A stretch of DNA of 64,000 nt from Nitrospirota bacterium. Its GTDB lineage: Bacteria; Nitrospirota; UBA9217. The notes beneath the pieces were generated by a model, which did not search any database, had not been told where the DNA came from, and worked only from the letters and a program-made list of their open reading frames with translations. Made by a program: the position numbers and the translations under genes. Below, piece by piece: positions 41,103-60,418 of the stretch. The DNA lies in assembly GCA_963749655.1 (NCBI GenBank), contig CAVVOB010000023.1, positions 79,819-143,818 on the forward strand. The letters run 5' to 3'. Position 1 is the first letter of the stretch; each line of letters begins with the position of its first letter.

Positions 41103-41560
41103 TCAGTGGTTGTCAAAGTCATTGTATTTTGCCTTGGTCCGCATGGCGGCGCAGATTTCCAGAAGAGCCTGCCTGTTTGCATCAGCTTCGGCAATAAACC
41201 GGACATCCATTTCACGAATAGCAGCACGAGCCTTGGTAAACGCCTTGAAAAATTGCGGTTGGGTCAAAAGATCGTTGCGGGAGTCCGCCTCTTATAGGAG
41301 GCTTTCATTTTGCCTGTTTTGTGACGGGCAAGCAGGAAGGCGAACGTCGCCTGGTTATGATTTATTGCGGGTATGGTACTGAAGACGCTTGCGCAATTGT
41401 TCGTTCGTCCGACATAGAGATACTTCTGGTTCTGCGAGAACAGGTAGACTCCCTTCGCAGGCATTGCTTTCGGTAACGCACCTACTTTGTACGTGCGGAC
41501 GTTCAAGAGCGCTGAACATTTCTTTTCTACCGCTGCGATGGCTTTCGTAAAAGAATCCAT
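41103..41560 (-). CDS. GIY-YIG nuclease-family protein (frameshifted)
   Basis: KGVYLFSQNQKYLYVGRTN.LRKRL..H; continues in another frame to ...QALLEI..AMRTKAKYNDFDNH*; start abuts the hsdM stop. Confidence 0.75.
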
Positions 41561-43160
41561 TTATCCCCTCTCTGTGCCGCTGCGCGAGGACAGATCGGCA
41601 GTTATTTCCCTGAACTGCTCCAACGCCGCTTCCAGGTCTTCCACGATCTCCTGGGCGATCACGTCGGGATCGGGGAGGTTGTCGGAGGCTTCGAGGGATT
41701 CGTCCTTGAGCCAGAAGATGTCGAGGCTGGCCTTGTCGCGGCTTACGAGTTCATCATAGTTATATGACCGCCAGCGGCCTTCATTTTTAACTTCCTCTCC
41801 CCTCGTGGGAGAGGACTGAGGTGAGGGGGACTTTTGCTTCTTCTTTCCCTTCTCCGTCATTCCGGCCCCCGAGCCGGAATCCAGTTGCAACCTTCCAGGT
41901 AGCCTTACGATGATGCCGATTCTCGGGATTGTAGCATTTCACAAACTCGTCGAGGTCGGAGCGCTGGAGGGAGCTTCGTCTTGAGCGTGAAGTGCATGTT
42001 CGTGCGGAGGTCGTAGATCCAGAGCTTCTTGGTCCAGGGCGTTTCGCTTGCCGGCTTTTTGTCGAAGAACAGCACGTTCGCCTTCACACCCTGGGCGTAG
42101 AACAGGCCCGTGGGCAGGCGCAGGAGCGTATGCACGTCGCACTCGTGCAGGAGCTTTCGTCCTGACCGTCTCCCCTGCCCCGCCTTCGAACAGGACGTTA
42201 TCCGGCACGACAACTGCCGCGCGGCCGTTCTGTTTTAAAAGGGTCTTTACATGCTGGATGAAGTTGAGCTGTTTGTTCGATGTCGTGGCCCAGAAGTCCT
42301 CGCGCTCGATGATATCGGTCTCCCGTGATACCTTGCCGTTCTCGGCAACGATGGTGGTGCTGCTCTTCTTGCCGAAGGGAGGATTGGTCAGTACGATATC
42401 GAACCGGTCTCCCGGGTCGGCGGCAAGAGAGTCCGAAACGATGATAGGAAGGTCCTTGTCGGTCCCGATGCTGTGGAGCATCAGGTTCATGGCGCAGAGC
42501 CGGGCCGTGCTCTGGACCAGTTCCCAGCCCTTGAAGGTCGAGCCTTTGAGCTTGCGCTTCTCGTCGGCGCTCATGTTCGGATTGTGCTTTACCACGTAAT
42601 CGTGCGCGGCCAGGAGAAACCCGCCGGTCCCGCACGCAGGATCGCAGAGCGGTCTCTTTCGGCTTCGGCTGGATCACGTCAACCATGGCCTGGATCAAAG
42701 GACGGGGAGTGAAGTACTGGCCTGCGCCGGACTTGGTATCCTGTGCGTTCTTCTCCAGGAGGCCTTCGTATGCGTCCCCTTTTACATCAGCGCTCATCAC
42801 CGACCAGTTTTCCTTATCGATCAGGTCGACGACAAGACGTCGTAATTTCGAAGGGTCCTGGAACTTGTTCTGGGATTTGTTGAAGATCAGGCCGAGCAGA
42901 CCTTTTTCATTGCCCAGGCTTTCGAGCATGTGGCGGTAGTGGTCGAACAGATCGTCGCCGTCCTTCTTTAAGAGCGTGGGCCAGTTGTACTTCGCAGGCA
43001 CGGCACTCGGCTGATTGTACGGCGGCTTCGTGCGCTCGTCGGCCATCTTGAGGAACAGCAGGTACGTAAGCTGCTCCACGTAGTCGCCGTAGCTCATCCC
43101 ATCGTCCCGGAGGACGTTACAGTAGTTCCAGAGTTTTGAAACGATTGCGGCAGGTGTCAT
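41561..43160 (-). CDS. hsdM: Type I R-M DNA methyltransferase HsdM (several frameshifts; REP-derived insert near the C-terminus)
   Basis: GQYFTPR, DPACGTGGF (across a frameshift), NPPF, LRLPTGLFYAQGVKANVLFF, SLDIFWLKD. Confidence 0.9.
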
Positions 43161-43193
43161 TGATAATTCCTTTTCAGGGTCAAAGATACTCGA

Positions 43194-43517
43194 TCAAACA
43201 GCGTGTAATTCCTTGCCACGCAGGATCCTCTTGAGGAAGGCGATCCGTTTCTTCGCTTCAGACAGAAGGGTGCGGTACCGCGCCCGATCTTCCTTGAGGG
43301 CGTCATAATACTTGATATCTTTGCCGAACAGCTTGCCTTTGTACGCAAACTGCACCTTGCCCTTTTCCCGCGACATGAGGTAGCAATACTGGCGTCCCTT
43401 TACATACTTTTTTACCAGGACCCCGCGCGGAAGCGCTGCCAGGGCCTTCTCATATTCCCCCTGGGCAAGCATTGCCTTCTTGAGTTCTTCTTCCAGGACG
43501 TTCTTAATAATTTTCAT
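43194..43517 (-). CDS. Small basic protein (107 aa), DUF6788-like; candidate DNA-binding regulator
   Basis: LPRGVLVKKYVKGRQYCYLMSREKGKVQFAYKG beta-sheet pattern plus coiled coil; directly under IR-promoter module P1. Confidence 0.7.
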   Translation of the reverse strand: MKIIKNVLEEELKKAMLAQGEYEKALAALPRGVLVKKYVKGRQYCYLMSREKGKVQFAYKGKLFGKDIKYYDALKEDRARYRTLLSEAKKRIAFLKRILRGKELHAV

Positions 43518-43530
43518 AACAACCTATCCC

Positions 43531-43578
43531 GTTACCATACAGTGGCTCGATTATATGATGCTGTATGGTAACCGTCAA
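43531..43578 (-). promoter_or_regulatory. IR-promoter module P1
   Basis: GTTACCATACA-N20-TGTATGGTAAC (43531-43572); minus strand TTGACG-N17-TATAAT with the -10 box in the spacer. Confidence 0.85.
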
Positions 43579-43650
43579 GGGATCATTGAAACTCCGGCTT
43601 ACGGCAATTCAGACCGGAGCACCCGCGAATGGTTGTTCAGGATGAGTACT

Positions 43651-43998
43651 TTATCCCCAGTATATTCCGGTCGGATCGCGGTCAAGCTCTGCAAAGACAA
43701 GGTCAAGGTTCTTAACAGGCGACAGATTTTCGTCCTCATGCCATTTATTATTTCGATCACTCCAATAGAGCATCCAGGTTTGCGCTTTCGGATTATAACG
43801 GAGCTGTGCGACTGCGGATTTTGTCCATTCCGTCATAGCCGGCGTCCAGGGGACGCGATTTTCCCATATCGTCACCGAGTTGCCGCGGAACGTGTACGAA
43901 AGCCTGATCTTATCCGCGACCCGCGGCGGCACCCGCTTCGCGATAAAGGCATCCAGTTTCTTTGCGACCGAGTTTTTCGCTGCTGCGGGAAGAGGCAT
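43651..43998 (-). CDS. DUF3024-domain protein
   Basis: AQLRY......WMLYWSDRNNKWH...DPTGIYWG. Confidence 0.85.
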   Translation of the reverse strand: MPLPAAAKNSVAKKLDAFIAKRVPPRVADKIRLSYTFRGNSVTIWENRVPWTPAMTEWTKSAVAQLRYNPKAQTWMLYWSDRNNKWHEDENLSPVKNLDLVFAELDRDPTGIYWG

Positions 43999-44040
43999 CG
44001 ATACTCCTCGCTTCGTTTGCTCACCAAGTAAACCTTACCG

Positions 44041-44088
44041 GTTACCATACACGTGCGCTAATTATGTCTTCTGTATGGTAACGGGCAA
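44041..44088 (-). promoter_or_regulatory. IR-promoter module P2
   Basis: GTTACCATACA-N20-TGTATGGTAAC (44041-44082); TTGCCC-N16-CATAAT. Confidence 0.85.
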
Positions 44089-44221
44089 GAGGTGTCTGAT
44101 ACCGAGACTACGGGAGGACAGTTCATTTGCGCAACAGGTCGCCGCAGCCTGAATGATCGATGACACATGAGTCCTGAACCCCTTTGACCTCAATCTATTA
44201 TTCGCCAAGAGACCCTTACCG

Positions 44222-44269
44222 GTTACCATACACGCTCCCTAATTATGCCACCTGTATGGTAACGGCCAA
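44222..44269 (-). promoter_or_regulatory. IR-promoter module P3
   Basis: GTTACCATACA-N20-TGTATGGTAAC (44222-44263); TTGGCC-N16-CATAAT. Confidence 0.85.
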
Positions 44270-44319
44270 AGAAGTTCTGTGTTTCTGAATCTGGTGAAAC
44301 ATCCTGCAGGTTTTTGATA

Positions 44320-44602
44320 GCCCAGGCTTTCGAGCATGTGGCGGTAGTGGTCGAACAGATCGTCGCCGTCCTTCTTTAAGAGCGTCGGCCAGTTGTACTT
44401 CGCGGGCACGGCACTCGGCTGGTTGTACGGCGGCTTCGTGCGCTCGTCGGCCATCCCCCTTCTATCCCCTCTCCCTCTGGGAGAGGGCGAGGGTGAGGGT
44501 GAGGGCGGTCAGCTGCTCCACGTAGTCGCCGTAGCTCATCCCATCGTCCCGGAGGACGTTACAGTAGTTCCAGAGTTTTTGAACAATTGCGGCAGATGTC
44601 AT
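44320..44602 (-). pseudogene. hsdM: hsdM 5' fragment (allele 2) with REP insertion
   Basis: MTSAAIVQKLWNYCNVLRDDGMSYGDYVEQL-[REP]-MADERTKPP...HMLESLG; ATG overlaps the parE stop (ATGA). Confidence 0.9.
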
Positions 44603-44898
44603 GGTAGTTTCAGAAGCCTTTCACTTCGCCAGACTCGAACGATGCGCACCTTGTTTTTATCATGCCGATAAACGATGCGAAAAGGCGGGTAAATGATCTC
44701 TCGCAGATGTTCGACATTGAACTCAGGTACGACACGGCCGCTCAGCGGGTGTGCGCCCAGCCGCTCGATCTTGGCGACGATCTCTGCAATAATCCGCTTC
44801 CCCACATCAGGCACGCCTTCGCCCGAGTACCATGCCTGCATTTCTTCAAGGTCCTTGATCGCTGATGCAGCAAACGTTATCCGTGCTTGTTCAGCCAT
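44599..44898 (-). CDS. RelE/ParE-family toxin
   Basis: F..SAIKDLEE...P.SGRVVPEF....LREII..PFRIVY...VRIVRVW. Confidence 0.9.
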   Translation of the reverse strand: MAEQARITFAASAIKDLEEMQAWYSGEGVPDVGKRIIAEIVAKIERLGAHPLSGRVVPEFNVEHLREIIYPPFRIVYRHDKNKVRIVRVWRSERLLKLP

Positions 44899-45253: not shown

Positions 45254-46188
45254 TAGGGTCAGGTCCATACTCTTTACCTTTTATAGTGACCGCACAGAAT
45301 TCTGCTTACATAGGTGGAATGCACACCGAGGTGATCCGCAATTGAACGCTGCGTGTATCCGTACTTCTCGACAGCCTCGGCGATTTTCTTGTCCCGCTTT
45401 CCCTTTGTCGTCCAGTATACTCTGACTGAATATTTTTTCAAGTGGCGGCCTGTTGGCGTAACGCTGGCTCTTGGGTATCTCGGGAATGTCTTTATGCCTT
45501 CTGAGATGATCGGCCAGGCTGTCGACAAAATCATCTTCGCCGAGAAGTGCCTGGCCTTTAACCTCGTTCCAGATGGTTTCCTTACCGATCCCCCATTTTA
45601 CAAATTGGCGATACTCTTTCTCTGCCTTGGCTCTTGTTCGGCTGAATTGTCCGAGTATCCAGTCCGTGGTAAGACACGGGTGAGCCGTATCCTTCCCCGC
45701 CCGTGGCCCGATAGCTTGACCATCTCCAGTCTTCGGGCTTTTCCACCATCCTGGCGCGGACCGGATTAAGGACCACATAGCGGCAGACTTCAAGCAGGTG
45801 TGTGTCCTTTTGAATGAGGATGGCCTTGTACCTGCCCTGAAAAAGGTGGCCGGTCTTGTTGTAGCGCTTGTTACGCGCCTGAGTATAAACACCGTTTAAC
45901 TGTCTCATGCCGAGGGAAAGGTTTCCATCCGGCGTTTCTATCATGAGGTGGTAATGATTGTCCATGAGGCAGTAGGCGTGACAGAGCCAGTGATAGCGTT
46001 TATTGACGAAGGCGAGGATCTTGAGAAATGTCTCCCGATCCTGGTCGTCTTTGAACACGGCTTTTTTATCGTTGCCGCGGTTGGTTATGTGATATACCGC
46101 ACCGGGGTATTCTATGCGGAGAGGGCGTGCCATGAAGGGAGTCTATCAGAAGTTAAAGCAAAAGTCCAACAGTATGGACCTGACCCTA
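45254..46188 (-). mobile_element. TIR-flanked HUH/Y1 transposase element no. 3 (CDS about 45274-46133, frameshifted)
   Basis: MARPLRIEYPGAVYHIT.RGN, CLMDNHYH, LNPVRA, WSSY; perfect 18-bp TIRs TAGGGTCAGGTCCATACT (45254-45271) and AGTATGGACCTGACCCTA (46171-46188). Confidence 0.88.
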
Positions 46189-46237: not shown

Positions 46238-47160
46238 GTCAGGTCTTTTATTTTGGCGTTACGCCTTTCCCCTCACCAGATTGCTGATTGTTGAATAATG
46301 CATATTCAGATGAGCGGCTATCTGCTGCTGAGTATAACCATATTTCTGCACGGCATCAATGATCTTCTTATCTCGTTTTTTCTTGTCCAGTATCACATTT
46401 TTCAGGAATATCTTGTCGAGAGACGGCCTATTCACATACCGATGACTCTTGGGTATTTCAGGAATGTCCTGATGTTTCCTGATATGGGAGATCAGCCCTT
46501 CCACAAAATCGTCTTCGCCCAGGATGGACTGTCCCTTCACCTCTCTCCAGATTGTCTCCTTGCCGATCCCCCATTCGACGAATTGCCGGTATTTCTGCTC
46601 TGCCGTGATCCTCTTCCGGCTGAATTGTCCGAGAATCCAATCCGTGGTCAGGCACAACGCCGGTGATTCGCGGCCTGCTGTCGCGAGGTAGCTGGACCAT
46701 TTCCAGGCTTCCGGTCGTTCTACCATGCGTGCCCGAACAGGGTTTAATACCACATACCGGCATACTTCGAGAAGATGGCTGTCTTTCTGAATAAGAATCG
46801 CTTTGTATCGGCCCTGGAACAGATGGCCAGTCCTTTGATGACGTTTATTGAAAAGCTGTGTATAGACCCCGTTCAACTGACGCATTCCGAGGGAGAGATT
46901 GCCGTCTGGCGTCTCGATCAGCAGATGATAGTGGTTGTCCATCATGCAGTAGACATGACAGACCCAATTGTATCGCTTATTAACGTGCAGGAGTGTGTTC
47001 AGGAAGTTGATGCGGTCCTGGTCGTCTTTGAAAACGGCCTTCTTTTCATTTCCGCGGGAGGTGATGTGATAGACGGCACCGGCGTATTCTATGCGGAGGG
47101 GGCGGGTCATGCGGCGACAGTATCACAGGAAGGAGAGAATGTCAAAATAAAAGACCTGAC
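46238..47160 (-). mobile_element. TIR-flanked HUH/Y1 transposase element no. 2 (intact CDS 46259-47110)
   Basis: 283-aa RAYT-like protein with C-terminal HTH; 18-bp TIRs GTCAGGTCTTTTATTTTG (46238-46255) and CAAAATAAAAGACCTGAC (47143-47160). Confidence 0.9.
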
Positions 47161-47304
47161 CCTATAGGTTCGATTGCGGCAGGGGGTAACAGTTTAGCCC
47201 TTTTTGACTTTTATTGAGATGCAGTCCGCAATTTATTTGACTTGCGGGCTTTTTTAGGGCAACATATATGAGTATTTATACTCATATATGCAGGAGGCAG
47301 ACTT

Positions 47305-47583
47305 ATGAAACGAATCGATCTCTTGAGGAAACAGCGGGTTCGGATCAGGGAAGACATTGGGGCAATGCTCGACAGTTTCCTGATTGGCACCGTCGCCAAA
47401 TCCCCTTCCATGTCCGGGCACAACCTGACTACCAAGGTGGAGGGAAAAACCGTTACGCTGTATGTCCGGAAGGACATCGCCCCCATGGCAACAGAGATGA
47501 GTTTGCGGTACACGAAGCTCTGGAACCTCATGCAGAAGCTTTCCAAGGTCAACTGGGAAATTCTGAGCATGGAGAACAAATAG
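47305..47583 (+). CDS. IS accessory protein (92 aa, DUF6788-like)
   Basis: AGGAGG RBS; HNLTTKVEGKTVTLYV pattern; stop 2 bp before the transposase start. Confidence 0.75.
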   Translation: MKRIDLLRKQRVRIREDIGAMLDSFLIGTVAKSPSMSGHNLTTKVEGKTVTLYVRKDIAPMATEMSLRYTKLWNLMQKLSKVNWEILSMENK

Positions 47584-47585
47584 GC

Positions 47586-49130
47586 ATGCCGCGATATCCG
47601 TGGCCGCCTCACGATTTTGCCTGCCTTTATGAGCACACTTGCCCGTATCTTGACGGGTTGTCCACGAAGTGGGTGTTGGGACAGTATCGAAGCCTGGATG
47701 ACGACCGGTTGGAGTATCTCCACCTCATCGATATCTACCGTAAGGAGGTGCGGGAGCGGGATGACCGGATACGGGTCCTGGAGCGGGAGCATGCGGAACT
47801 TCGAGCCAAATATCAGGCCTTGCACCGTAAGCAGTTCAAGCCGAACAGAAAACGGGATGAGAACAGCGGAGGGGAAGAGGGTTCATCGTCAGCCTGCGCG
47901 CAAAAGAAGAAACGCGGGGCGCCTGTGGGACATCCGGGGTGGACAAGGCCGGTCCCGTCGCGGATCGATCGGACTATTCCGGTGCCCGCCCCGGCTGTTT
48001 GTCCTCACTGCGGGTCGCATGACTTGACACTTGAGGGTTCAATACATGAGCACATTCAGGAGGACATCGTCGTAAAACCCACGACTACGGTTACGAAATA
48101 TGTGCATGAGGAGGCGTTCTGCCCGCGCTGCAACCGGGCGGTCGTGGGGGCCGGTCAGGACGAGATCCCCAACGCCGCCATCGGGCCGCTTGCCAAGTCC
48201 ACGGCCGGGTATCTGCGTTATGAAATCGGCATTTCCTACCGGAAGGTGCGGCAGATCCTCTCTGACTTGTTCGGGCTTTCCTGCGTGCCGGCCTCGCTCG
48301 TGGGTTTTGACAACAAGGCCGCCAAACGGGGGGCGGCCATTTACGAGGATGTCCGCGAAAAGATCAGGGCTTCGGACGTGGTGCATGCCGACGAGACCTC
48401 CTGGAGAAATGACGGTAAAGGGCATTTTGTATGGTTCGCGGGCAATAACGATCTTGCGTTCTTCCATATTGACAGGCATCGGTCACAGGATGCGGCGAAG
48501 ACCGTTTTCGGAAAGGCTTTTGACGGAGTTCTGATTCGCGACCGCTATGCGGCCTACAACGGCATTGGTCTCGACTGGCAGGCGTGTCTGGCGCACATCA
48601 TAACCAACGCCAAGGACATCCGCCGGGAGCATGCGCTCCTGCCGACGCGTGAGCAGGATAACGCCGTCACCCGTTTCTGCGACCAGGTCGCCAACTTCTG
48701 CGCGCGGGCATGTGAGGCAGGGCAGAAACTGAAATCCGGCGAGAGCCCCTGGGAGCATGCGGCGAACATCGAAAAGTGTTTCATCACCGAGCTGAAGGGA
48801 ATCTGCAAAAGGCCGCTCTCGTTCAAACCAGCCGAGACCCTGAGGAGTTTCCTCGTCGGCCCCGAGCAGGTACATCTCTTCACCTTCCTGCGTATCCCCG
48901 GCGTCCCGCCCACGAACAATCATGCGGAACAATCCCTGCGAAAGATGGTGATCATGAGGAAGGTCAGCTTCGGCACCCGTTCGGACAACGGACTCAAAAC
49001 CCACAGCGTCATCCCTACGCTTGTGCAGACCGCGAAAAGACAAGGCGTCCATCCACGTGAATTTCTGCACATTCTCCATACTGCCGATGCCGCGACGGCG
49101 CAAGCCGCGCTGTATAACAATTCAAGTTGA
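47586..49130 (+). CDS. IS66 transposase TnpC
   Basis: Coiled coil, KRGAP.GHPG, CPHCG zinc finger, HADET, DRYAAY, QACLAH, TNNHAEQSLR. Confidence 0.95.
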   Translation: MPRYPWPPHDFACLYEHTCPYLDGLSTKWVLGQYRSLDDDRLEYLHLIDIYRKEVRERDDRIRVLEREHAELRAKYQALHRKQFKPNRKRDENSGGEEGSSSACAQKKKRGAPVGHPGWTRPVPSRIDRTIPVPAPAVCPHCGSHDLTLEGSIHEHIQEDIVVKPTTTVTKYVHEEAFCPRCNRAVVGAGQDEIPNAAIGPLAKSTAGYLRYEIGISYRKVRQILSDLFGLSCVPASLVGFDNKAAKRGAAIYEDVREKIRASDVVHADETSWRNDGKGHFVWFAGNNDLAFFHIDRHRSQDAAKTVFGKAFDGVLIRDRYAAYNGIGLDWQACLAHIITNAKDIRREHALLPTREQDNAVTRFCDQVANFCARACEAGQKLKSGESPWEHAANIEKCFITELKGICKRPLSFKPAETLRSFLVGPEQVHLFTFLRIPGVPPTNNHAEQSLRKMVIMRKVSFGTRSDNGLKTHSVIPTLVQTAKRQGVHPREFLHILHTADAATAQAALYNNSS

Positions 49131-49385
49131 AAAGAAAACCATCGGAGCATACAATAGTGGCGTGAAGACTTCCAACCTTGGATAATCAGGTCAGAGAGGG
49201 ACGCTTTGTCCTTTCGGCAGGTCGACATCTTTTGGGAGTAAAAAGGGCTAAACTGTTACCGGCAGGGTAACAGTTTAGCCCTTTTTGACTTTTATTGAGA
49301 TGCAGTCCGCAATTTATTTGACTTGCGGGCTTTTTTAGGGCAACATATATGAGTATTTATACTCATATATGCAGGAGGCAGACTT

Positions 49386-49664
49386 ATGAAACGAATCGAT
49401 CTCTTGAGGAAACAGCGGGTTCGGATCAGGGAAGACATTGGGGCAATGCTCGACAGTTTCCTGATTGGCACCGTCGCCAAATCCCCTTCCATGTCCGGGC
49501 ACAACCTGACTACCAAGGTGGAGGGAAAAACCGTTACGCTGTATGTCCGGAAGGACATCGCCCCCATGGCAACAGAGATGAGTTTGCGGTACACGAAGCT
49601 CTGGAACCTCATGCAGAAGCTTTCCAAGGTCAACTGGGAAATTCTGAGCATGGAGAACAAATAG
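49386..49664 (+). CDS. IS accessory protein (copy 2)
   Basis: Identical translation to 47305-47583. Confidence 0.75.
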   Translation: MKRIDLLRKQRVRIREDIGAMLDSFLIGTVAKSPSMSGHNLTTKVEGKTVTLYVRKDIAPMATEMSLRYTKLWNLMQKLSKVNWEILSMENK

Positions 49665-49666
49665 GC

Positions 49667-51211
49667 ATGCCGCGATATCCGTGGCCGCCTCACGATTTTG
49701 CCTGCCTTTATGAGCACACTTGCCCGTATCTTGACGGGTTGTCCACGAAGTGGGTGTTGGGACAGTATCGAAGCCTGGATGACGACCGGTTGGAGTATCT
49801 CCACCTCATCGATATCTACCGTAAGGAGGTGCGGGAGCGGGATGACCGGATACGGGTCCTGGAGCGGGAGCATGCGGAACTTCGAGCCAAATATCAGGCC
49901 TTGCACCGTAAGCAGTTCAAGCCGAACAGAAAACGGGATGAGAACAGCGGAGGGGAAGAGGGTTCATCGTCAGCCTGCGCGCAAAAGAAGAAACGCGGGG
50001 CGCCTGTGGGACATCCGGGGTGGACAAGGCCGGTCCCGTCGCGGATCGATCGGACTATTCCGGTGCCCGCCCCGGCTGTTTGTCCTCACTGCGGGTCGCA
50101 TGACTTGACACTTGAGGGTTCAATACATGAGCACATTCAGGAGGACATCGTCGTAAAACCCACGACTACGGTTACGAAATATGTGCATGAGGAGGCGTTC
50201 TGCCCGCGCTGCAACCGGGCGGTCGTGGGGGCCGGTCAGGACGAGATCCCCAACGCCGCCATCGGGCCGCTTGCCAAGTCCACGGCCGGGTATCTGCGTT
50301 ATGAAATCGGCATTTCCTACCGGAAGGTGCGGCAGATCCTCTCTGACTTGTTCGGGCTTTCCTGCGTGCCGGCCTCGCTCGTGGGTTTTGACAACAAGGC
50401 CGCCAAACGGGGGGCGGCCATTTACGAGGATGTCCGCGAAAAGATCAGGGCTTCGGACGTGGTGCATGCCGACGAGACCTCCTGGAGAAATGACGGTAAA
50501 GGGCATTTTGTATGGTTCGCGGGCAATAACGATCTTGCGTTCTTCCATATTGACAGGCATCGGTCACAGGATGCGGCGAAGACCGTTTTCGGAAAGGCTT
50601 TTGACGGAGTTCTGATTCGCGACCGCTATGCGGCCTACAACGGCATTGGTCTCGACTGGCAGGCGTGTCTGGCGCACATCATAACCAACGCCAAGGACAT
50701 CCGCCGGGAGCATGCGCTCCTGCCGACGCGTGAGCAGGATAACGCCGTCACCCGTTTCTGCGACCAGGTCGCCAACTTCTGCGCGCGGGCATGTGAGGCA
50801 GGGCAGAAACTGAAATCCGGCGAGAGCCCCTGGGAGCATGCGGCGAACATCGAAAAGTGTTTCATCACCGAGCTGAAGGGAATCTGCAAAAGGCCGCTCT
50901 CGTTCAAACCAGCCGAGACCCTGAGGAGTTTCCTCGTCGGCCCCGAGCAGGTACATCTCTTCACCTTCCTGCGTATCCCCGGCGTCCCGCCCACGAACAA
51001 TCATGCGGAACAATCCCTGCGAAAGATGGTGATCATGAGGAAGGTCAGCTTCGGCACCCGTTCGGACAACGGACTCAAAACCCACAGCGTCATCCCTACG
51101 CTTGTGCAGACCGCGAAAAGACAAGGCGTCCATCCACGTGAATTTCTGCACATTCTCCATACTGCCGATGCCGCGACGGCGCAAGCCGCGCTGTATAACA
51201 ATTCAAGTTGA
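49667..51211 (+). CDS. IS66 transposase TnpC (copy 2)
   Basis: Identical translation to copy 1. Confidence 0.93.
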   Translation: MPRYPWPPHDFACLYEHTCPYLDGLSTKWVLGQYRSLDDDRLEYLHLIDIYRKEVRERDDRIRVLEREHAELRAKYQALHRKQFKPNRKRDENSGGEEGSSSACAQKKKRGAPVGHPGWTRPVPSRIDRTIPVPAPAVCPHCGSHDLTLEGSIHEHIQEDIVVKPTTTVTKYVHEEAFCPRCNRAVVGAGQDEIPNAAIGPLAKSTAGYLRYEIGISYRKVRQILSDLFGLSCVPASLVGFDNKAAKRGAAIYEDVREKIRASDVVHADETSWRNDGKGHFVWFAGNNDLAFFHIDRHRSQDAAKTVFGKAFDGVLIRDRYAAYNGIGLDWQACLAHIITNAKDIRREHALLPTREQDNAVTRFCDQVANFCARACEAGQKLKSGESPWEHAANIEKCFITELKGICKRPLSFKPAETLRSFLVGPEQVHLFTFLRIPGVPPTNNHAEQSLRKMVIMRKVSFGTRSDNGLKTHSVIPTLVQTAKRQGVHPREFLHILHTADAATAQAALYNNSS

Positions 51212-51557: not shown

Positions 51558-51752
51558 TTACTTTTGTTTCTCTTCAACAACAATATCTTCCGGCTTAATC
51601 AAGACAACCTTGCCGTCACGCCACGCCGCAACGGGATTCCCGGCTTTTTTGTGCTGCAAAAGAGCCTGCTGTACGGCCTTTTTTAAAGCCTTATCGATTT
51701 CCTTGCCCTCATGGAAAAGTTCATCAATTGTTTTCTTTTCTGCAACGCTCAT
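51558..51752 (-). CDS. Small protein (64 aa), partner of the zeta-like kinase
   Basis: AVQQALLQHKKAGNPVAAWRDGKVVLI. Confidence 0.8.
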   Translation of the reverse strand: MSVAEKKTIDELFHEGKEIDKALKKAVQQALLQHKKAGNPVAAWRDGKVVLIKPEDIVVEEKQK

Positions 51753-52402: not shown

Positions 52403-52450
52403 GTTACCATACAATGTCTCATATTCTGATCCCTGTATGGTAACGGCCAA
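52403..52450 (-). promoter_or_regulatory. IR-promoter module P4
   Basis: GTTACCATACA-N20-TGTATGGTAAC (52403-52444); TTGGCC-N16-CAGAAT. Confidence 0.85.
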
Positions 52451-52477
52451 GGGATGTTTGAGCGTTTTGATCTGTTT

Positions 52478-52821
52478 AGGCCGAGCAGCCTTTTTTCCAA
52501 TGACAACGTCTTTCTCCATAGCTCCTCGCCCTCGGAGGGAGAGGAATTCAAAGGTGAGGGTGAAAAGTCTTTGCCCAGGCTTTCGAGCATGTGGCGGTAG
52601 TGGTCGAAAAGATCATCGCCGTCCTTCTTTAAGAGCGTGGGCCAGTTGTACTTCGCAGGCACTGCACTCGGTTGGTTGTAAGGCGGCTTCGTACGCTCGT
52701 CTGCCATCTTGAGGAATAGTAAATAGGTCAACTGCTCCACGTAATCGCCGTAGCTCATCCCGTCGTCCCGGAGGACGTTACAGTAGTTCCAGAGTTTTGA
52801 TACGATTGCCGCTGGTGTCAT
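52478..52821 (-). pseudogene. hsdM: hsdM 5' fragment (allele 3) with REP insertion after LESLG
   Basis: Protein identical to the hsdM N-terminus up to HMLESLG but with many synonymous changes; residual EK.LLGL after the insert. Confidence 0.9.
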
Positions 52822-52853: not shown

Positions 52854-53002
52854 ATCAAACAGCGTGTAATTCCTTGCCACGCAGGATCTTCTTGAGGAAC
52901 GCGATCCGTTTCTTCGCCTCAGACAGAAGGGTGCGGTACCGCGCCCGATCTTCCTTGAGGGCGTCATAATACTTGATATCTTTGCCGAACAGCTTGCCTT
53001 TG
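52854..53002 (-). pseudogene. 3' remnant of the 107-aa gene (copy of about 43194-43342)
   Basis: Near-identical DNA; truncated ~13 bp from the TIR of the adjacent HUH element. Confidence 0.85.
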
Positions 53003-53015
53003 AACCTGCCTAAGT

Positions 53016-53937
53016 GTCAGGTCTTTTATTTTGGTGTTACGCCTTCCCTCTCACCAGATTGCTGATCGTTGAATAATGCATATTCAGATGAGCGGCTATC
53101 TGCTGCTGAGTATAACCATATTTCTGCACGGCATCAATGATCTTCTTATCTCGTTTTCTCTTGTCCAGTATCACATTTTTCGGAATATCTTGTCGAGAGA
53201 CGGTCTGTTCACATACCGATGACTCTTGGGTATTTCAGGAATGTCCTGATGTTTCCTGATATGGGAGATGAGCCCCTCCACAAAATCGTCTTCACCCAGA
53301 ATAGACTGTCCCTTTACCTCTCTCCAGATAGTCTCCTTGCCGATTCCCCATTCGACGAATTGCCGGTATTCTTGCTCGGCCTTTGCCCTCTTTCTACTGA
53401 ATTGTCCAAGGATCCAGTCCGTGGTCAGACACGGTGCTGGTGATTCCCGCCCCGCTGTGGCACGGTAGCTGGACCATTTCCAGACTTCCGGTCGTTCAAC
53501 CATCCGTGCCCGGACAGGATTTAATACCACGTACCGGCAAACTTCGAGAAGATGACTGTCTTTCTGAATAAGAATCGATTTGTATCGGCCCTGGAACAGA
53601 TGGCCAGTCCTTTGATGACGTTTATTAAAAAGCTGTGTATAGACCCCGTTCAACTGCCGCATTCCAAGTGAAAGATTGCCGTCAGGCGTCTCGATCAAGA
53701 GGTGATAATGGTTGTCCATCATGCAGTAGGCATGGCAGAGCCAGTTATACCGCTTATTGACATGCTGGAGCGTGTTCAGGAAGTTGATGCGGTCCTGGTC
53801 GTCTTTGAAGACGGCCTTCTTTTCATTGCCGCGGGAGGTGATGTGATAGACGGCACCGGCGTATTCTATGCGGAGGGGACGGGTCATGGGGGGAATTTAG
53901 CAAAGAACAGGAAGAATGTCAAATTAAAAGACCTGAC
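53016..53937 (-). mobile_element. TIR-flanked HUH/Y1 transposase element no. 1 (CDS 53037-53887, frameshift near 53180)
   Basis: Close paralog of 46259-47110; TIRs GTCAGGTCTTTTATTTTG (53016-53033) and CAAATTAAAAGACCTGAC (53920-53937). Confidence 0.9.
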
Positions 53938-54040: not shown

Positions 54041-56038
54041 TTAGCTGCCAATCCCAAGTTTTTCAAAGAATGCCTTATGTCGTTGTTTAGCGTCCAGGAC
54101 AATCTTGTCAAACGCGATTATTTCAATATGCGCATTATGGTTACGGTTGTAATTGTAATAGCCTAATTCACCTTGAAGCTTGGCATAGTTACCATTCTCT
54201 GCAAACTCAGTAATTTGGGAGGTTATATCGCAAATGGCGTAACAGTAAAAACGGGTTGTATCGTCTACCGTGACAGGTCGACCATTAGTTTGCCATATAC
54301 CACTCTTACGAATATCCCGAACATATCTAAATAACTGTTTCGTCGGGTCCTCGTCAAATTTCTTTCTTTGTGGCTTCTTAAATTCAAGCAAAGAAACAAC
54401 TCGTGCTCGTCGGTCGTCACCCACTTCTGAGTAGATCAATATGTCGGGGCGATCTTTGCTGTTAGATGTTGTGACATCGCATAGGCGTTTGTCCGAAGCA
54501 GCACACGCATGGAACGCCAGAAGTTCGTCAACAAGCCACAGGTTGTGATTCTCATATGAAATAATATCGGTATCAGCTTTGCGGGGAAAGACGATATCAT
54601 GAACAATATCTTCCTTGCTATATTTTTTATCTTTATTAAGTTCAAGTTTTTTATCAAGCAGATCGATTATCAATTTTCGGAAAAGCACATACCCTGCCAG
54701 TTGATCTTTCTGAAAGTCTTCCAACTTACCTGTAAGTTCATCGTACTGGGATTTTATTTCATCAACACTTGTTGCTTGCGTCCTAAGAAGTTTCTCACTA
54801 TTCTTCTTTATCTCATATTCTGCTTTTCCCTTGTAGGAATATAGAACTTGAGTCATCTTTTCATCAGAGGTATTCAGTTCAATGTCTTTAAGTGCCTCCG
54901 GACAGTACTTCACAACGGCACGCAACATCGGCGATTCATTCTGGGTATACTTTGCGATTCTCTCAGCTTTCTGTGTTTCAACGAAAGTGATAACCTTCGC
55001 AAGATGATTCTTTGCGCGGCTCACAACTTCCTGCTGAATTTCATTCATTGTAATTTCTTTATTGCTGTTTGTGAGTAGATTTGGCTCAGATGGAATAGTG
55101 AACTCTTGTCGATACTCATCGACATTTTCATCTAAGAATGGTGAGGTAATGTAAGCTGAGTAGAAATATTTATCGCCGTCGTCATCAAACTGAATTGAGG
55201 TACCAAGTAAGCTGCCAATCGATATTCTTTTTACATCCCTTCCATGTGCACAATAAACAAGCTGATGTGTTTGTGCGCGAGTTCCGTAAAGACGAATATG
55301 ATGAACTGAAAATGGCTTAGATTGTATCTCAATGTGTTCGGTCGTAATGTTGCCTTTGATATCGTTGAATAAATCATGAAGGTTTATTGCGCGATCAGCG
55401 GAATCATCAATAATTTGGATTGTAGGCGCCAAATCGCTTATAAATCTTGCAAGGCAATGCTCGAATACACGCTGTGCAATTTTTGTGGATGTCTTGTACG
55501 CACTTGGCTGTTTTCTGTAATCTTCATTGAATCCAATAAGACGAACTACAGTTTGTCTCTTTTTCGCTTTTGAGATTTCAACAGGCTGCTCTTGGACGCC
55601 TTTATCAATTGAAAAAATAATATTTCTATCAGCCAGTGCACTCTCTTGGTGTTGAAAGGTGCTTGCAATTTCGACGAGATCAAATGCTTTAAGCCACAGG
55701 AACCTCCCAATGCCTTTTCCACCCTTAACAAGTTTGTATGTTGAATCTGCGGTTTGGAAGGAATCAAAATTTTCATTAGTAAAGCCGATACCATTGTCCT
55801 CGATGTCGAATCCAGTTATATTAGGTAGCGTATCATCACCCTCTAATCCAAGCGAGGTTTGGTTTAAGTCCCGCTTAACTCGAATCGTTATCAATCCCTT
55901 TGATAAGTCACCAGCCTCCTCTATTGCCTGGATAGAATTTATAACTGCTTCGAATACTGGTAGTAGTGCCTCTGATTTAAAATGTCGAAGGTTTCGAATT
56001 TTCCCTTGGAGACTGGCTTTAAGCATTACATCCGACAT
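54041..56038 (-). CDS. GHKL (HATPase_c/MORC-like) ATPase with C-terminal PD-(D/E)xK-like domain
   Basis: EAVINSIQA, IEDNGIGF, GGKGIGRF; C-terminal RPDILIY...LLEFKKP; AT-rich. Confidence 0.8.
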   Translation of the reverse strand: MSDVMLKASLQGKIRNLRHFKSEALLPVFEAVINSIQAIEEAGDLSKGLITIRVKRDLNQTSLGLEGDDTLPNITGFDIEDNGIGFTNENFDSFQTADSTYKLVKGGKGIGRFLWLKAFDLVEIASTFQHQESALADRNIIFSIDKGVQEQPVEISKAKKRQTVVRLIGFNEDYRKQPSAYKTSTKIAQRVFEHCLARFISDLAPTIQIIDDSADRAINLHDLFNDIKGNITTEHIEIQSKPFSVHHIRLYGTRAQTHQLVYCAHGRDVKRISIGSLLGTSIQFDDDGDKYFYSAYITSPFLDENVDEYRQEFTIPSEPNLLTNSNKEITMNEIQQEVVSRAKNHLAKVITFVETQKAERIAKYTQNESPMLRAVVKYCPEALKDIELNTSDEKMTQVLYSYKGKAEYEIKKNSEKLLRTQATSVDEIKSQYDELTGKLEDFQKDQLAGYVLFRKLIIDLLDKKLELNKDKKYSKEDIVHDIVFPRKADTDIISYENHNLWLVDELLAFHACAASDKRLCDVTTSNSKDRPDILIYSEVGDDRRARVVSLLEFKKPQRKKFDEDPTKQLFRYVRDIRKSGIWQTNGRPVTVDDTTRFYCYAICDITSQITEFAENGNYAKLQGELGYYNYNRNHNAHIEIIAFDKIVLDAKQRHKAFFEKLGIGS

Positions 56039-56065: not shown

Positions 56066-57340
56066 TTAATTGCTCTGGGATAGACCACCAGAAAATGCTT
56101 TTGCTAGGATAGTCTGCCGCAGCCGCTCGGCACGTTGAACATTGACCTCAGATGTTGCTTCTACCTCCTCAGTTACACTCAAGCGTTGTTCTACCTCAGC
56201 AACGATGCGCACTTGTTCAGCAAGCGGAGGGATAGGAATAATTAATTCACGAAAACGCTTTTGCGTGAGATTCAAGCCGCTATCACTGATACCTGTCTTC
56301 AATTCATCGAGTTCGTCGACAATGTGCGGCGCATTGAGCACAAGTTCTAAGTAAGATGGGATAGCTATATCGCTTTTAGCTCGAAGTCTATAAACCTTGT
56401 CACAATTTATTAAGCGAGACCGCGTAGTCTTTACAAGACATGCGACACCGACACGTGTTCGCGGCCCAGCTCGTGTTATCAGCAAATCACCAGCGGACAG
56501 CTCAAGATGTGGACGCGGTTTCAACTTCGCGGGGAGCCGCTTATTTTCAATTTCGAGGAAGCGAAGTGACTGAACTGCCGTTGTTTTAATTACACCCCAT
56601 ACTGCGGGACTGTCGGACGGTTCATTCTCGCATCGTGGGCTCCATCCTTGATCTAGCGATTCAATAGCTACATCAATTGGCTGGTGTTTCCAGCTTTTAT
56701 AACTCTTGAGCCCATTAACGGCGGTGAGTGTGCCCTCGACTGCGGCTTTGAGAACAGCGGCTTTGTAGCGTTTAAGGTTCGCCTTGACGCGCTTGAGATT
56801 GGCGACGGCTTCGTCCAGACGGGAGAATTGCTTTTCGATCTCGGCGACGATGCTTCGTTGCTGCTCAAGAGGTGCGAGCGGTATTTGCAGCTGTGCAAGC
56901 TTCGTCCCGTTAACATTTGGTTGCCCAATACCAGCTTGGCTTTCACTAATTTGCTTCCAGTACTGAGAGGACTTGAAGAAGTAATCTATATAGCGTGATT
57001 CAATCTCAGGCTTCAATCGCACCCTGATTAAATAGGAAGCAAAGACAGACTCCGGAATCTTTTCTTTAATCAGAAAGCTTTTACCGACGGTCGCGCCAGT
57101 TCGCGCAAAAACGATGTCACCCTGTTTAAGCAAGTATTTGGATTTATCTTTAGCTTCAACCTTACAGAAAGGCACCGCATTCCAGTCAACGTTGTTGTCT
57201 TGAATATCAGTTATTCGCAGAAAACGCGGTCCGACTGGTTTCTCCGCAGCGCTCGTCGTGTAACCATATTGAATCGCAGTGGCTATATCCGCCAGTTTTA
57301 CGACGGACCATGAATTTGGCATGTTGATACTTTTGTTCAC
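56066..57340 (-). CDS. hsdS: Type I R-M specificity subunit HsdS
   Basis: Two TRDs with IPLAPLEQQRSIV / IPIPPLAEQVRIV and LKAAVEG / ILAKAFSG conserved regions. Confidence 0.95.
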   Translation of the reverse strand: MNKSINMPNSWSVVKLADIATAIQYGYTTSAAEKPVGPRFLRITDIQDNNVDWNAVPFCKVEAKDKSKYLLKQGDIVFARTGATVGKSFLIKEKIPESVFASYLIRVRLKPEIESRYIDYFFKSSQYWKQISESQAGIGQPNVNGTKLAQLQIPLAPLEQQRSIVAEIEKQFSRLDEAVANLKRVKANLKRYKAAVLKAAVEGTLTAVNGLKSYKSWKHQPIDVAIESLDQGWSPRCENEPSDSPAVWGVIKTTAVQSLRFLEIENKRLPAKLKPRPHLELSAGDLLITRAGPRTRVGVACLVKTTRSRLINCDKVYRLRAKSDIAIPSYLELVLNAPHIVDELDELKTGISDSGLNLTQKRFRELIIPIPPLAEQVRIVAEVEQRLSVTEEVEATSEVNVQRAERLRQTILAKAFSGGLSQSN

Positions 57341-60258: not shown

Positions 60259-60418
60259 TGTTAAAAGAATAGACAATAATCGAGGGAGCACGCGTTGATG
60301 ACAGGATGAGAATAGTACAGAGAAACTTAAATTGCAAGGACTTAGATGGGGTATTTTTGGGGGAGGCTTTTTAAATTGTGGATAGCGAAATTTTGATAAA
60401 GAATTCCGGAGTGGGTGC

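Follow-up and report, generated by a model that had tools for sequence, protein, structure and literature searches.

In a 64,000-nucleotide stretch of the genome of a Nitrospirota bacterium (assembly GCA_963749655.1, contig CAVVOB010000023.1, positions 79,819 to 143,818; hereafter the window), a gene for a small basic protein of 107 amino acids (aa) lies between a promoter-embedded inverted repeat, module P1, and hsdM, a gene of a type I restriction-modification (R-M) locus. We conclude that this protein is probably a repressor of its own promoter and of look-alike modules that stand before defense and toxin genes, and that its family is probably not dedicated to R-M. An earlier annotation of this DNA (the original prediction) had proposed that the protein is a controller of the type I system, which is too narrow: the usual partner of the family is a nucleotidyltransferase, NTP_transf_8, hsdM adjoins the gene in 2/8 closely related loci, hsdR and hsdS lack a module, and the hsdM of the window is frameshifted. 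The gene, its family and structural model, the modules and their positions relative to promoter elements, and the co-occurrence, covariation and genomic contexts described below were obtained directly from the programs used.

The inverted repeat of P1, GTTACCATACA-N20-TGTATGGTAAC, spans 42 bp, and its arms are perfect over 12 bp (GTTACCATACAG and CTGTATGGTAAC). Read along the minus strand, the module consists of TTGACG, arm 1, six bases, TATAAT, eight bases and arm 2. Arm 1 fills the spacer between the -35 and -10 elements, and arm 2 lies at about the expected transcription start. A scan of positions 42900-44700 found four promoter-like sites, compared with a mean of 1.0 in shuffled sequences, and no terminator-like site on the minus strand. 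P1 (TTGACG-17-TATAAT, 11/12 matches to the consensus) outranked the other two minus-strand promoter-like sites of this region and was, as had been predicted, the best consensus promoter among the four modules of the window (P1 to P4), P4 having a weak -10 element. The 12-mer of the arms occurs eight times in the window, as four arm pairs, versus 0.04 occurrences expected in shuffled sequences. Throughout the 4.27-Mb assembly of this genome, which is 87% complete, the full module was found at four places only (43531, 44041, 44222 and 52403 of the window), all on the minus strand.

Co-occurrence of protein and module was assessed over 401 sampled genomes of the phylum; in what follows G-numbers denote genomes, C-numbers contigs in G115, and L-numbers fetched stretches. 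Searching with the single 107-aa protein identified relatives in 14/401 genomes, seven of which, the genome of the window included, had close copies (subfamily 1), and a related-locus search of genome contigs with the same single protein gave one locus. The module pattern was present in 15/401 genomes and a reversed control pattern in one; all seven genomes with a subfamily-1 protein also carried the module. A profile built from an alignment of 81 cluster representatives of the family (A1) extended the count to 51/401 genomes with family members.

The original prediction had suggested examining whether homologs have the inverted repeat upstream. Such a promoter-embedded repeat lies directly upstream of the family gene in 32/32 loci: 8/8 of subfamily 1 (the window, G230, G197, G115:C54, G115:C4, G279, G220 and G111), 17/17 of subfamily 2 and 7/7 of subfamily 3. 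Proteins of subfamily 2 (30-35% identical, about 110-120 aa) follow a different repeat, TTTTCCACCAC-N24-GTGGTGGAAAA, at the same promoter position, with a TTG-type -35 element abutting arm 1, (G/C)ATAAT in the spacer, and arm 2 over codons 3-6. Subfamily 3, a fused form, has a third repeat, TAACTACA...TGTAGTTA, with a second right-hand copy and TTGACA in the spacer. Such a pairing of three subfamilies with three repeats in one architecture would be expected if a repressor and its operator were involved, and it provides the main support for the proposed binding of the arms.

In a set of 37 modules, every one of the 22 arm positions is conserved in 31-37 members, a conservation that is inflated and partly built in, as the modules were gathered by arm similarity. 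The TTG of the -35 element is kept in 28-31 of the 37, and the spacer is variable except for an A/T-rich zone at the -10 position. The strongest promoters belong to the modules that precede the putative repressor gene itself, with TTGACG and either TATAAT or TATGAT (the window, G230, G197 and G115:C54).

The usual partner of the family, either adjacent or fused, is a gene for an NTP_transf_8 protein (PF12281). In subfamily 2 it lies directly downstream in 12/17 loci, with one further degraded copy; no NTP_transf_8 gene follows in the subfamily-2 loci L015, L016, L045 and L053, and Pfam confirmed the assignment in 3/3 partners tested. Two of the eight subfamily-1 loci have it as well (G279 and G220), overlapping the small gene stop to start, although the G220 copy is in two pieces. 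In subfamily 3 the DUF6788-like domain is joined to about 210 further residues in 7/7 loci, with NTP_transf_8 at residues 104-283 of the fusion; these 313-aa fusions (L037, L038, L040, L041, L042, L050 and L052) each have three half-sites, one left and two right, around TTGACA. No NTP_transf_8 gene was found in the window. The small protein or domain is the constant element, and the repeat persists both without the nucleotidyltransferase (6/8 subfamily-1 loci) and when the two are fused. According to the original prediction, homologs that are simply partners of nucleotidyltransferases and that lack the upstream repeat would speak against a controller. The partnership was indeed found (12/17 plus the degraded copy, 7/7 and 2/8 loci), and the repeat was nevertheless present in 32/32.

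As had been noted originally, the protein encoded between P1 and hsdM is basic, with a pI of 10.03 and 28 lysine and arginine versus 12 aspartate and glutamate residues in 12.5 kDa (open reading frame [ORF] 43194-43517, with hsdM 33 bp on). In a set of 5.8 billion proteins 162 homologs were found, mostly unnamed and of 107-108 aa, and 223 cluster representatives were found at E<=0.001 in a set of 1.84 billion. Pfam gave no match even at E<=10, helix-turn-helix (HTH) families included, and NCBIfam, PADLOC and PHROGs gave none. The original designation as DUF6788-like is fair but weak. In its favor, the three nearest ESM Atlas clusters (score 0.96-0.97, from a feature search that provides neither alignment nor E-value) carry DUF6788 on 59-69% of their members, and 8/81 relatives match the family weakly (best E 3.7e-4); the protein itself does not reach the DUF6788 gathering threshold (Pfam PF20586).

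An AlphaFold2 model, a check that the original prediction had proposed, was obtained at a pLDDT of 93.4 and agrees with the original description of a non-HTH protein. It consists of a helix (residues 2-28), three strands (33-39, 42-51 and 54-61) and a second helix (65-99), arranged as a long helical hairpin with the three-stranded sheet as its cap. In the A1 alignment the conserved residues (P30, G32, Y44, Y46, R50, Y59 and G61) are concentrated in the sheet. A profile search of PDB sequences with the family returned nothing below E 0.29. The homodimer prediction scored 0.00, where the mark is 0.42, a result that has no bearing either way on the oligomeric state.

Taken with the covariation, these data lead us to propose the following mechanism. 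The 107-aa protein most likely binds both 11-12-bp arms of the 42-bp module, and bound there would block the -35/-10 spacer together with the start site, keeping RNA polymerase out. The conserved tyrosines and arginine of the sheet might read one arm, and two copies of the protein, joined by their helical hairpins, could occupy both arms at one face of the DNA, as the 31 bp between arm centers correspond to about three helical turns. Repression of P1 would extend to hsdM through a shared transcript, since hsdM begins 33 bp downstream and no terminator was found between them. The protein would also act in trans on P2 (DUF3024/PDC-S43), on P3, which has no ORF, and on P4 (zeta-toxin-like kinase), and a derepression signal is presumed. 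The original proposal that the protein binds the arms and autoregulates hsdM and the cargo promoters is thus in line with the comparison (32/32 loci and covariation), with binding itself a matter of inference; as candidate activities, arm binding and repression of P1 and the cargo promoters are well supported by that comparison.

In the ancestral state, the protein would have been encoded upstream of its partner, an NTP_transf_8 enzyme, or fused to the N terminus of that enzyme, and its own operator would have varied with it. In a Nitrospirota clade the nucleotidyltransferase would then have been lost and the module copied before toxin-antitoxin and defense cargo, giving rise to arrays in defense islands. 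The array of the window would be one of these, sitting in a decaying type I R-M locus.

Several observations weigh against the repressor interpretation. Foldseek and VIA-align recognized no DNA-binding fold in the model. Compared with the PDB, the whole model had no Foldseek match at E<=0.001 (the best was prefoldin beta, E 0.15), and a wide VIA-align search returned helical hairpins only, at Z about 9. For residues 25-81, the sheet domain, modeled alone (pLDDT 71), VIA-align reached at most Z 4.8 and Foldseek at best E 0.34; a resemblance of the sheet to AP2 or integrase arm domains is conceivable, the HPI integrase arm domain 3jtz reaching E 1.1 only. A distance of 31 bp between arm centers is unusually far for a 12.5-kDa protein. 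In eight of the 15 module genomes, with one or two modules each, the single-protein query detected no subfamily-1 protein, and hmmsearch (E<=0.001) found no member of the family in 11 fetched stretches, nine from these eight genomes and two from extra-module contigs of G111. The module sites in G221 and G173 are without promoter features, the related genomes of the sample are not independent, and with hsdM frameshifted in this assembly a working methylase for the protein to control may be missing. In many cases the protein-less modules are on short contigs (1.6-8 kb) of assemblies that are incomplete. Either their repressor is encoded elsewhere or unassembled, or these cassettes are unrepressed, or another factor acts on the arms.

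The partnership with NTP_transf_8 lends itself to a different explanation, which we consider unlikely: the protein may be an orphan antitoxin that neutralizes the nucleotidyltransferase by contact and shows ordinary autoregulation, the toxin having been lost here, with no role for the hsdM pseudogene or the cargo. The downstream enzyme genes in 13/17 subfamily-2 loci (one degraded) and in 2/8 subfamily-1 loci (overlapping in G279 and G220) are consistent with this, as are the three frameshifts in the hsdM of the window. However, modules at two to five copies before unrelated cargo, in subfamily-1 loci that lack the nucleotidyltransferase, are hard to explain without a trans-acting factor. The stand-alone gene has also been kept over four genomes at 72-80% identity and without stops, and covalent fusion to the enzyme in 7/7 loci is unusual for a labile antitoxin. 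Toxicity of NTP_transf_8 is undocumented in the literature searched, where queries for DUF6788, PF20586, NTP_transf_8 and PF12281 returned no paper, and PADLOC gave no match.

It is very unlikely, in our judgment, that the repeats are the target of some other host factor, or form hairpins in RNA or DNA, while the 107-aa protein has a role away from DNA, for example as a prefoldin-like coiled-coil adaptor. The lack of a recognized DNA-binding fold, the prefoldin beta structure at the top of the Foldseek results (E 0.15) and the eight genomes with modules in which no subfamily-1 protein was found would fit such a role. A common factor, however, would not predict a separate repeat for each of the three subfamilies, placed alike in the promoter in 32/32 loci, and the arms cannot fold together in the module's own transcript because arm 1 lies upstream of the expected start.

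The modules might also be recombination sites that bound mobile cassettes in an integron-like manner, with the protein as an architectural or directionality factor instead of, or besides, a repressor; we regard this as highly improbable. Whether paralogous modules are compared with each other or the window with G161, homology ends 0-2 bp from the end of arm 2 and is followed by different cargo (zeta toxin versus RhuM); cassette order and content differ among the arrays of G230, G197 and G115, and the module-DUF3024 unit recurs in three genomes. Yet no integrase or site-specific recombinase family was found beside any array (71 flanking ORFs of 16 loci and the ORFs of the window), the transposases present being IS110, DDE and Y1 only, and in some loci only. 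The conserved -10 elements in the 20-bp spacer and the -35 element abutting arm 1 fit a promoter, and the arm ends, GTTACCA, differ from the integron core (RYYYAAC / GTTRRRY) at two R positions of GTTRRRY. Homologous recombination between repeats of about 113 bp could yield the same breakpoints.

Some cargo modules have two additional elements in common, namely a leader after arm 2, CGCGAAGGTTGTTTCTTCAGGTCTGAGGAGTGAAG-like, with a ribosome-binding site at its end, and a segment of about 70 nt before the -35 element (L024 9089-9136, L023 4800-4830, L025 10750-10788 and 11770-11808). The unit of about 113 bp consists of this segment and the 42-bp repeat. A combined possibility, distinctly unlikely as a whole, is that the units of about 113 bp are boundaries of mobile defense and toxin-antitoxin cassettes, and that the DUF6788-like protein both silences the array and participates in the exchange of cassettes, with the end of arm 2 as the site. 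If true, this would amount to an integron-like capture platform that has no integron integrase, supplies a regulated promoter with every cassette, and repeatedly targets the first 255-330 nt of hsdM.

Finally, a dedicated controller of the type I system, an analogue of the C proteins as originally proposed, is scarcely credible: the gene does lie between a strong promoter and hsdM, a second copy preceded the second hsdM start, and the G115:C4 array likewise stands before hsdM, but hsdM is beside the gene in only 2/8 subfamily-1 loci, the next downstream ORF in G230 has no Pfam match, the neighbors in G197 are on the opposite strand, the gene in G115:C54 is followed by an unnamed 743-aa ORF and a DUF3857/transglutaminase-like ORF, and most of the family partners a nucleotidyltransferase while hsdR and hsdS are without a module.

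The features of the window are listed in Table 1. In the R-M locus the order is hsdR, hsdS, a 665-aa ORF, about 10 kb of insertions, and then P1, the 107-aa gene and hsdM, which places hsdR and hsdS more than 10 kb upstream of the 107-aa gene, and hsdR more than 13 kb away. The insertions comprise Y1-transposase genes, two identical IS66-family copies, a Phd-ParE pair and the cassettes.

Table 1. Features at and around the 107-aa gene (window coordinates).
Feature	Position	Strand	Basis and remarks
hsdM	41561..43160	-	Pfam HsdM_N and N6_Mtase; start at 43160, 33 bp past the stop of the 107-aa gene
107-aa basic DUF6788-like protein, candidate autorepressor, subfamily 1	43194..43517	-	ORF, homologs, AlphaFold2 model
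Module P1	43531..43578	-	-35 TTGACG at 43573-43578; 42-bp inverted repeat at 43531-43572; TATAAT in spacer
DUF3024 cargo behind P2, PADLOC defense candidate PDC-S43	43651..43998	-	Pfam E 4.5e-31; PADLOC E 2.3e-21
Module P2	44041..44088	-	TTGCCC-16-CATAAT; before the DUF3024 gene
Module P3	44222..44269	-	TTGGCC-16-CATAAT; then 139 bp without a convincing ORF, then P2
hsdM 5' remnant B, into P3	44311..44602	-	82.5% identical to 42903-43160; GC-rich palindromic insert
64-aa ORF after the zeta-toxin-like kinase	51558-51752	-	ORF list
Zeta-toxin/AAA_33-like kinase, cargo behind P4	51769..52335	-	Pfam Zeta_toxin E 1.3e-11
Module P4	52403..52450	-	TTGGCC, weak -10; before the zeta-toxin-like gene
hsdM 5' remnant C, into P4	52568..52821	-	93% identical to 42907-43160 and beyond
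Remnant of the 107-aa gene, residues 58-107	52858..53007	-	94% identical, no stops; just before second hsdM start at 52821
hsdS	56066-57340	-	Pfam Methylase_S; without module
hsdR	57337-60291	-	Pfam ResIII, EcoEI_R_C and HSDR_N; without module

Compared with the intact hsdM of G115, the hsdM of the window has three 1-nt insertions and an extra GC-rich insert of about 97 nt near its 3' end. The two genes are 95% identical in DNA, and their first 170 residues are 98.8% identical. The copies compared (window 41561-43160 and L026 11371-12867) come from different genera, g1 and g5, and as hsdM of two genera is 95% identical in DNA, a recent transfer of the R-M locus between them is suggested. Contigs of relatives (92-99% identical) from four public sequencing runs all lacked the three extra bases, and RNA contigs from public runs covered hsdM relatives only. 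None of the public runs contained this strain (best word share 0.39, with about 94% identity over the gene), and the frameshifts may therefore reflect either true decay of the gene or errors of assembly.

The remnant of a second 107-aa gene before another hsdM start, originally placed at 52854-53002, was found at closely similar coordinates (52858-53007). On its upstream side, where this copy is cut off, lies a RAYT-like Y1-transposase gene. By BLAST, both hsdM 5' remnants end at nt 254-258 of hsdM and are followed by modules P3 and P4. Similar hsdM-module junctions were present in G115:C4, G161 and G103, and further into hsdM in G063; the junction of remnant C and P4 is shared with G161, and that of remnant B and P3 has a homologous counterpart in G115:C4. 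Overall, the first 255-330 nt of hsdM are fused to a module in five genomes, with at least three junctions at about aa 85, 94 and 110 of HsdM (window 44311-44602 and 52445-52821; L026 9390-9811; L064 2336-2779; L063 near 1600-1745; L059 near 2085-2180). These fragments look like the products either of Campbell-type insertion of circles with a 5' piece of hsdM or of repeated targeting. The G115:C4 order is an hsdM remnant, two modules, the homolog, a module, Fic and an intact hsdM. Modules recur in type I loci, yet adjacency of the family gene to hsdM is limited to 2/8 subfamily-1 loci.

Most subfamily-1 loci have two to five modules in the same orientation, and within such an array the 107-aa gene usually comes last. 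DUF3024 is paired with a module in the window, G063 and G111. Elsewhere the cargo consists of VapBC, a DUF1841-like gene, DUF6933 (PDC-S63, with or without SEC-C) and a 174-aa protein of unknown type (G230, G197 and G115), Fic (G115:C4), RhuM (G161) and an MNT-HEPN pair (G011). In a literature search on DUF3024, DUF6933, PDC-S43 and PDC-S63, each of the papers listed contained a single mention and dealt with another subject. The arrays are flanked by defense islands, with GmrSD, DUF4917 and DUF488 in G230, Wadjet JetABCD in G115:C54, and HNH, NUDIX, a ResIII-PLD helicase, Phd-PIN and hsdM in G115:C4. "Empty" units, in which two modules lie 96-139 bp apart without a convincing ORF, occur in three genomes (window 44083-44221, L068 544-639 and L023 4102-4218), and because such units recur, a small RNA or peptide is possible.

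Other elements were observed in the window. The two identical IS66-family copies are in tandem (47268-49130 and 49349-51211, period 2081 bp), each with a 620-aa ORF carrying DDE_Tnp_IS66 and an overlapping 92-aa ORF. The small first ORF (47305-47580) was considered as kin of the 107-aa family, and no relation was shown (hhalign probability 0.1%). There are three IS200-like, RAYT-type Y1-transposase genes (45582-46133, 46259-47110 and 53171-53887), and GC-rich palindromic REP-like inserts in the hsdM remnants (near 44455-44500 and 52500-52567) and in the 3' part of hsdM (41783-41893). The 665-aa ORF between hsdS and the insertions (54041-56038, minus strand) has no Pfam family and a weak PADLOC match to HEPN_IX (E 0.0018), and may belong to the type I operon as an embedded gene. 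A 98-aa ORF without a Pfam family (41264-41560, minus strand) directly follows hsdM.

How defense islands and toxin-antitoxin clusters are silenced and later activated is for the most part an open question, and the regulators known so far are few (C proteins, BrxR/CapW, CapH and RptR). If the 107-aa protein is a repressor, it would add to these the unstudied DUF6788-like proteins, in which no DNA-binding fold is recognized, and its three subfamilies would offer three natural protein/operator pairs as mutual specificity controls. A portable module would place DUF3024/PDC-S43, DUF6933/PDC-S63, VapBC, Fic, zeta toxin, RhuM and MNT-HEPN under one repressor. The results also offer a first clue to what DUF6788-like proteins and NTP_transf_8 nucleotidyltransferases may do.

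In size and predicted architecture the 107-aa protein resembles DUF6788 (PF20586), an uncharacterized Pfam family of about 100 aa. Type II C proteins such as C.PvuII are HTH dimers of the Xre/lambda-cI type, encoded upstream of the endonuclease, that activate at low and repress at high dose. The 107-aa protein is similarly small and a predicted autoregulator, with a palindromic repeat over its own promoter and probable co-transcription with an R-M gene. Unlike C proteins, it has no HTH, its gene precedes the methylase instead of the endonuclease, and repression is its only proposed activity; C-boxes differ from its repeat in sequence and spacing. AbiEi, of the AbiEi/AbiEii pair, is a larger, winged-helix, autoregulating antitoxin, and AbiEii belongs to a different Pfam family from NTP_transf_8. 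As with AbiEi, family loci have the small gene upstream of a Pol-beta-type nucleotidyltransferase and inverted repeats in the promoter; in contrast to AbiEi, the protein stands alone in 6/8 subfamily-1 loci, and in subfamily 3 its domain and the enzyme form one polypeptide.

The closest parallel in gene order is RptR, from the RRDM island of enteropathogenic E. coli (EPEC), so that a small repressor just upstream of hsdM has already been published (Zhang et al., Nucleic Acids Res 2025; PMC12255303). The premise of the original prediction that controllers are typical of type II and not of type I systems is outdated by that report. The island has the order rptR, hsdM, hsdS, darT, darG, hsdR and an M48 peptidase gene, and RptR, found in Gammaproteobacteria, is a 9-kDa all-alpha homodimer with a four-helix fold and recognition helix alpha-4 that silences the promoter of the island by binding three 6-bp TAGCTA palindromes located over the -10 box (PMC12255303). 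TAGCTA was absent from 43518-43600. The 107-aa protein differs from RptR in its size (12.5 kDa) and in the three-stranded sheet of its model, in its 11-12-bp arms set 20 bp apart, and in its link mostly to a nucleotidyltransferase and not to R-M. RptR and the 107-aa protein are alike in being small and single-domain, and each is the product of a first gene placed immediately before hsdM in a type I R-M locus with toxin-antitoxin cargo. In each case the sites lie across the core promoter and have been conserved along with the protein, binding having been shown for RptR and being probable here. The two proteins are analogous in position and unrelated in structure.

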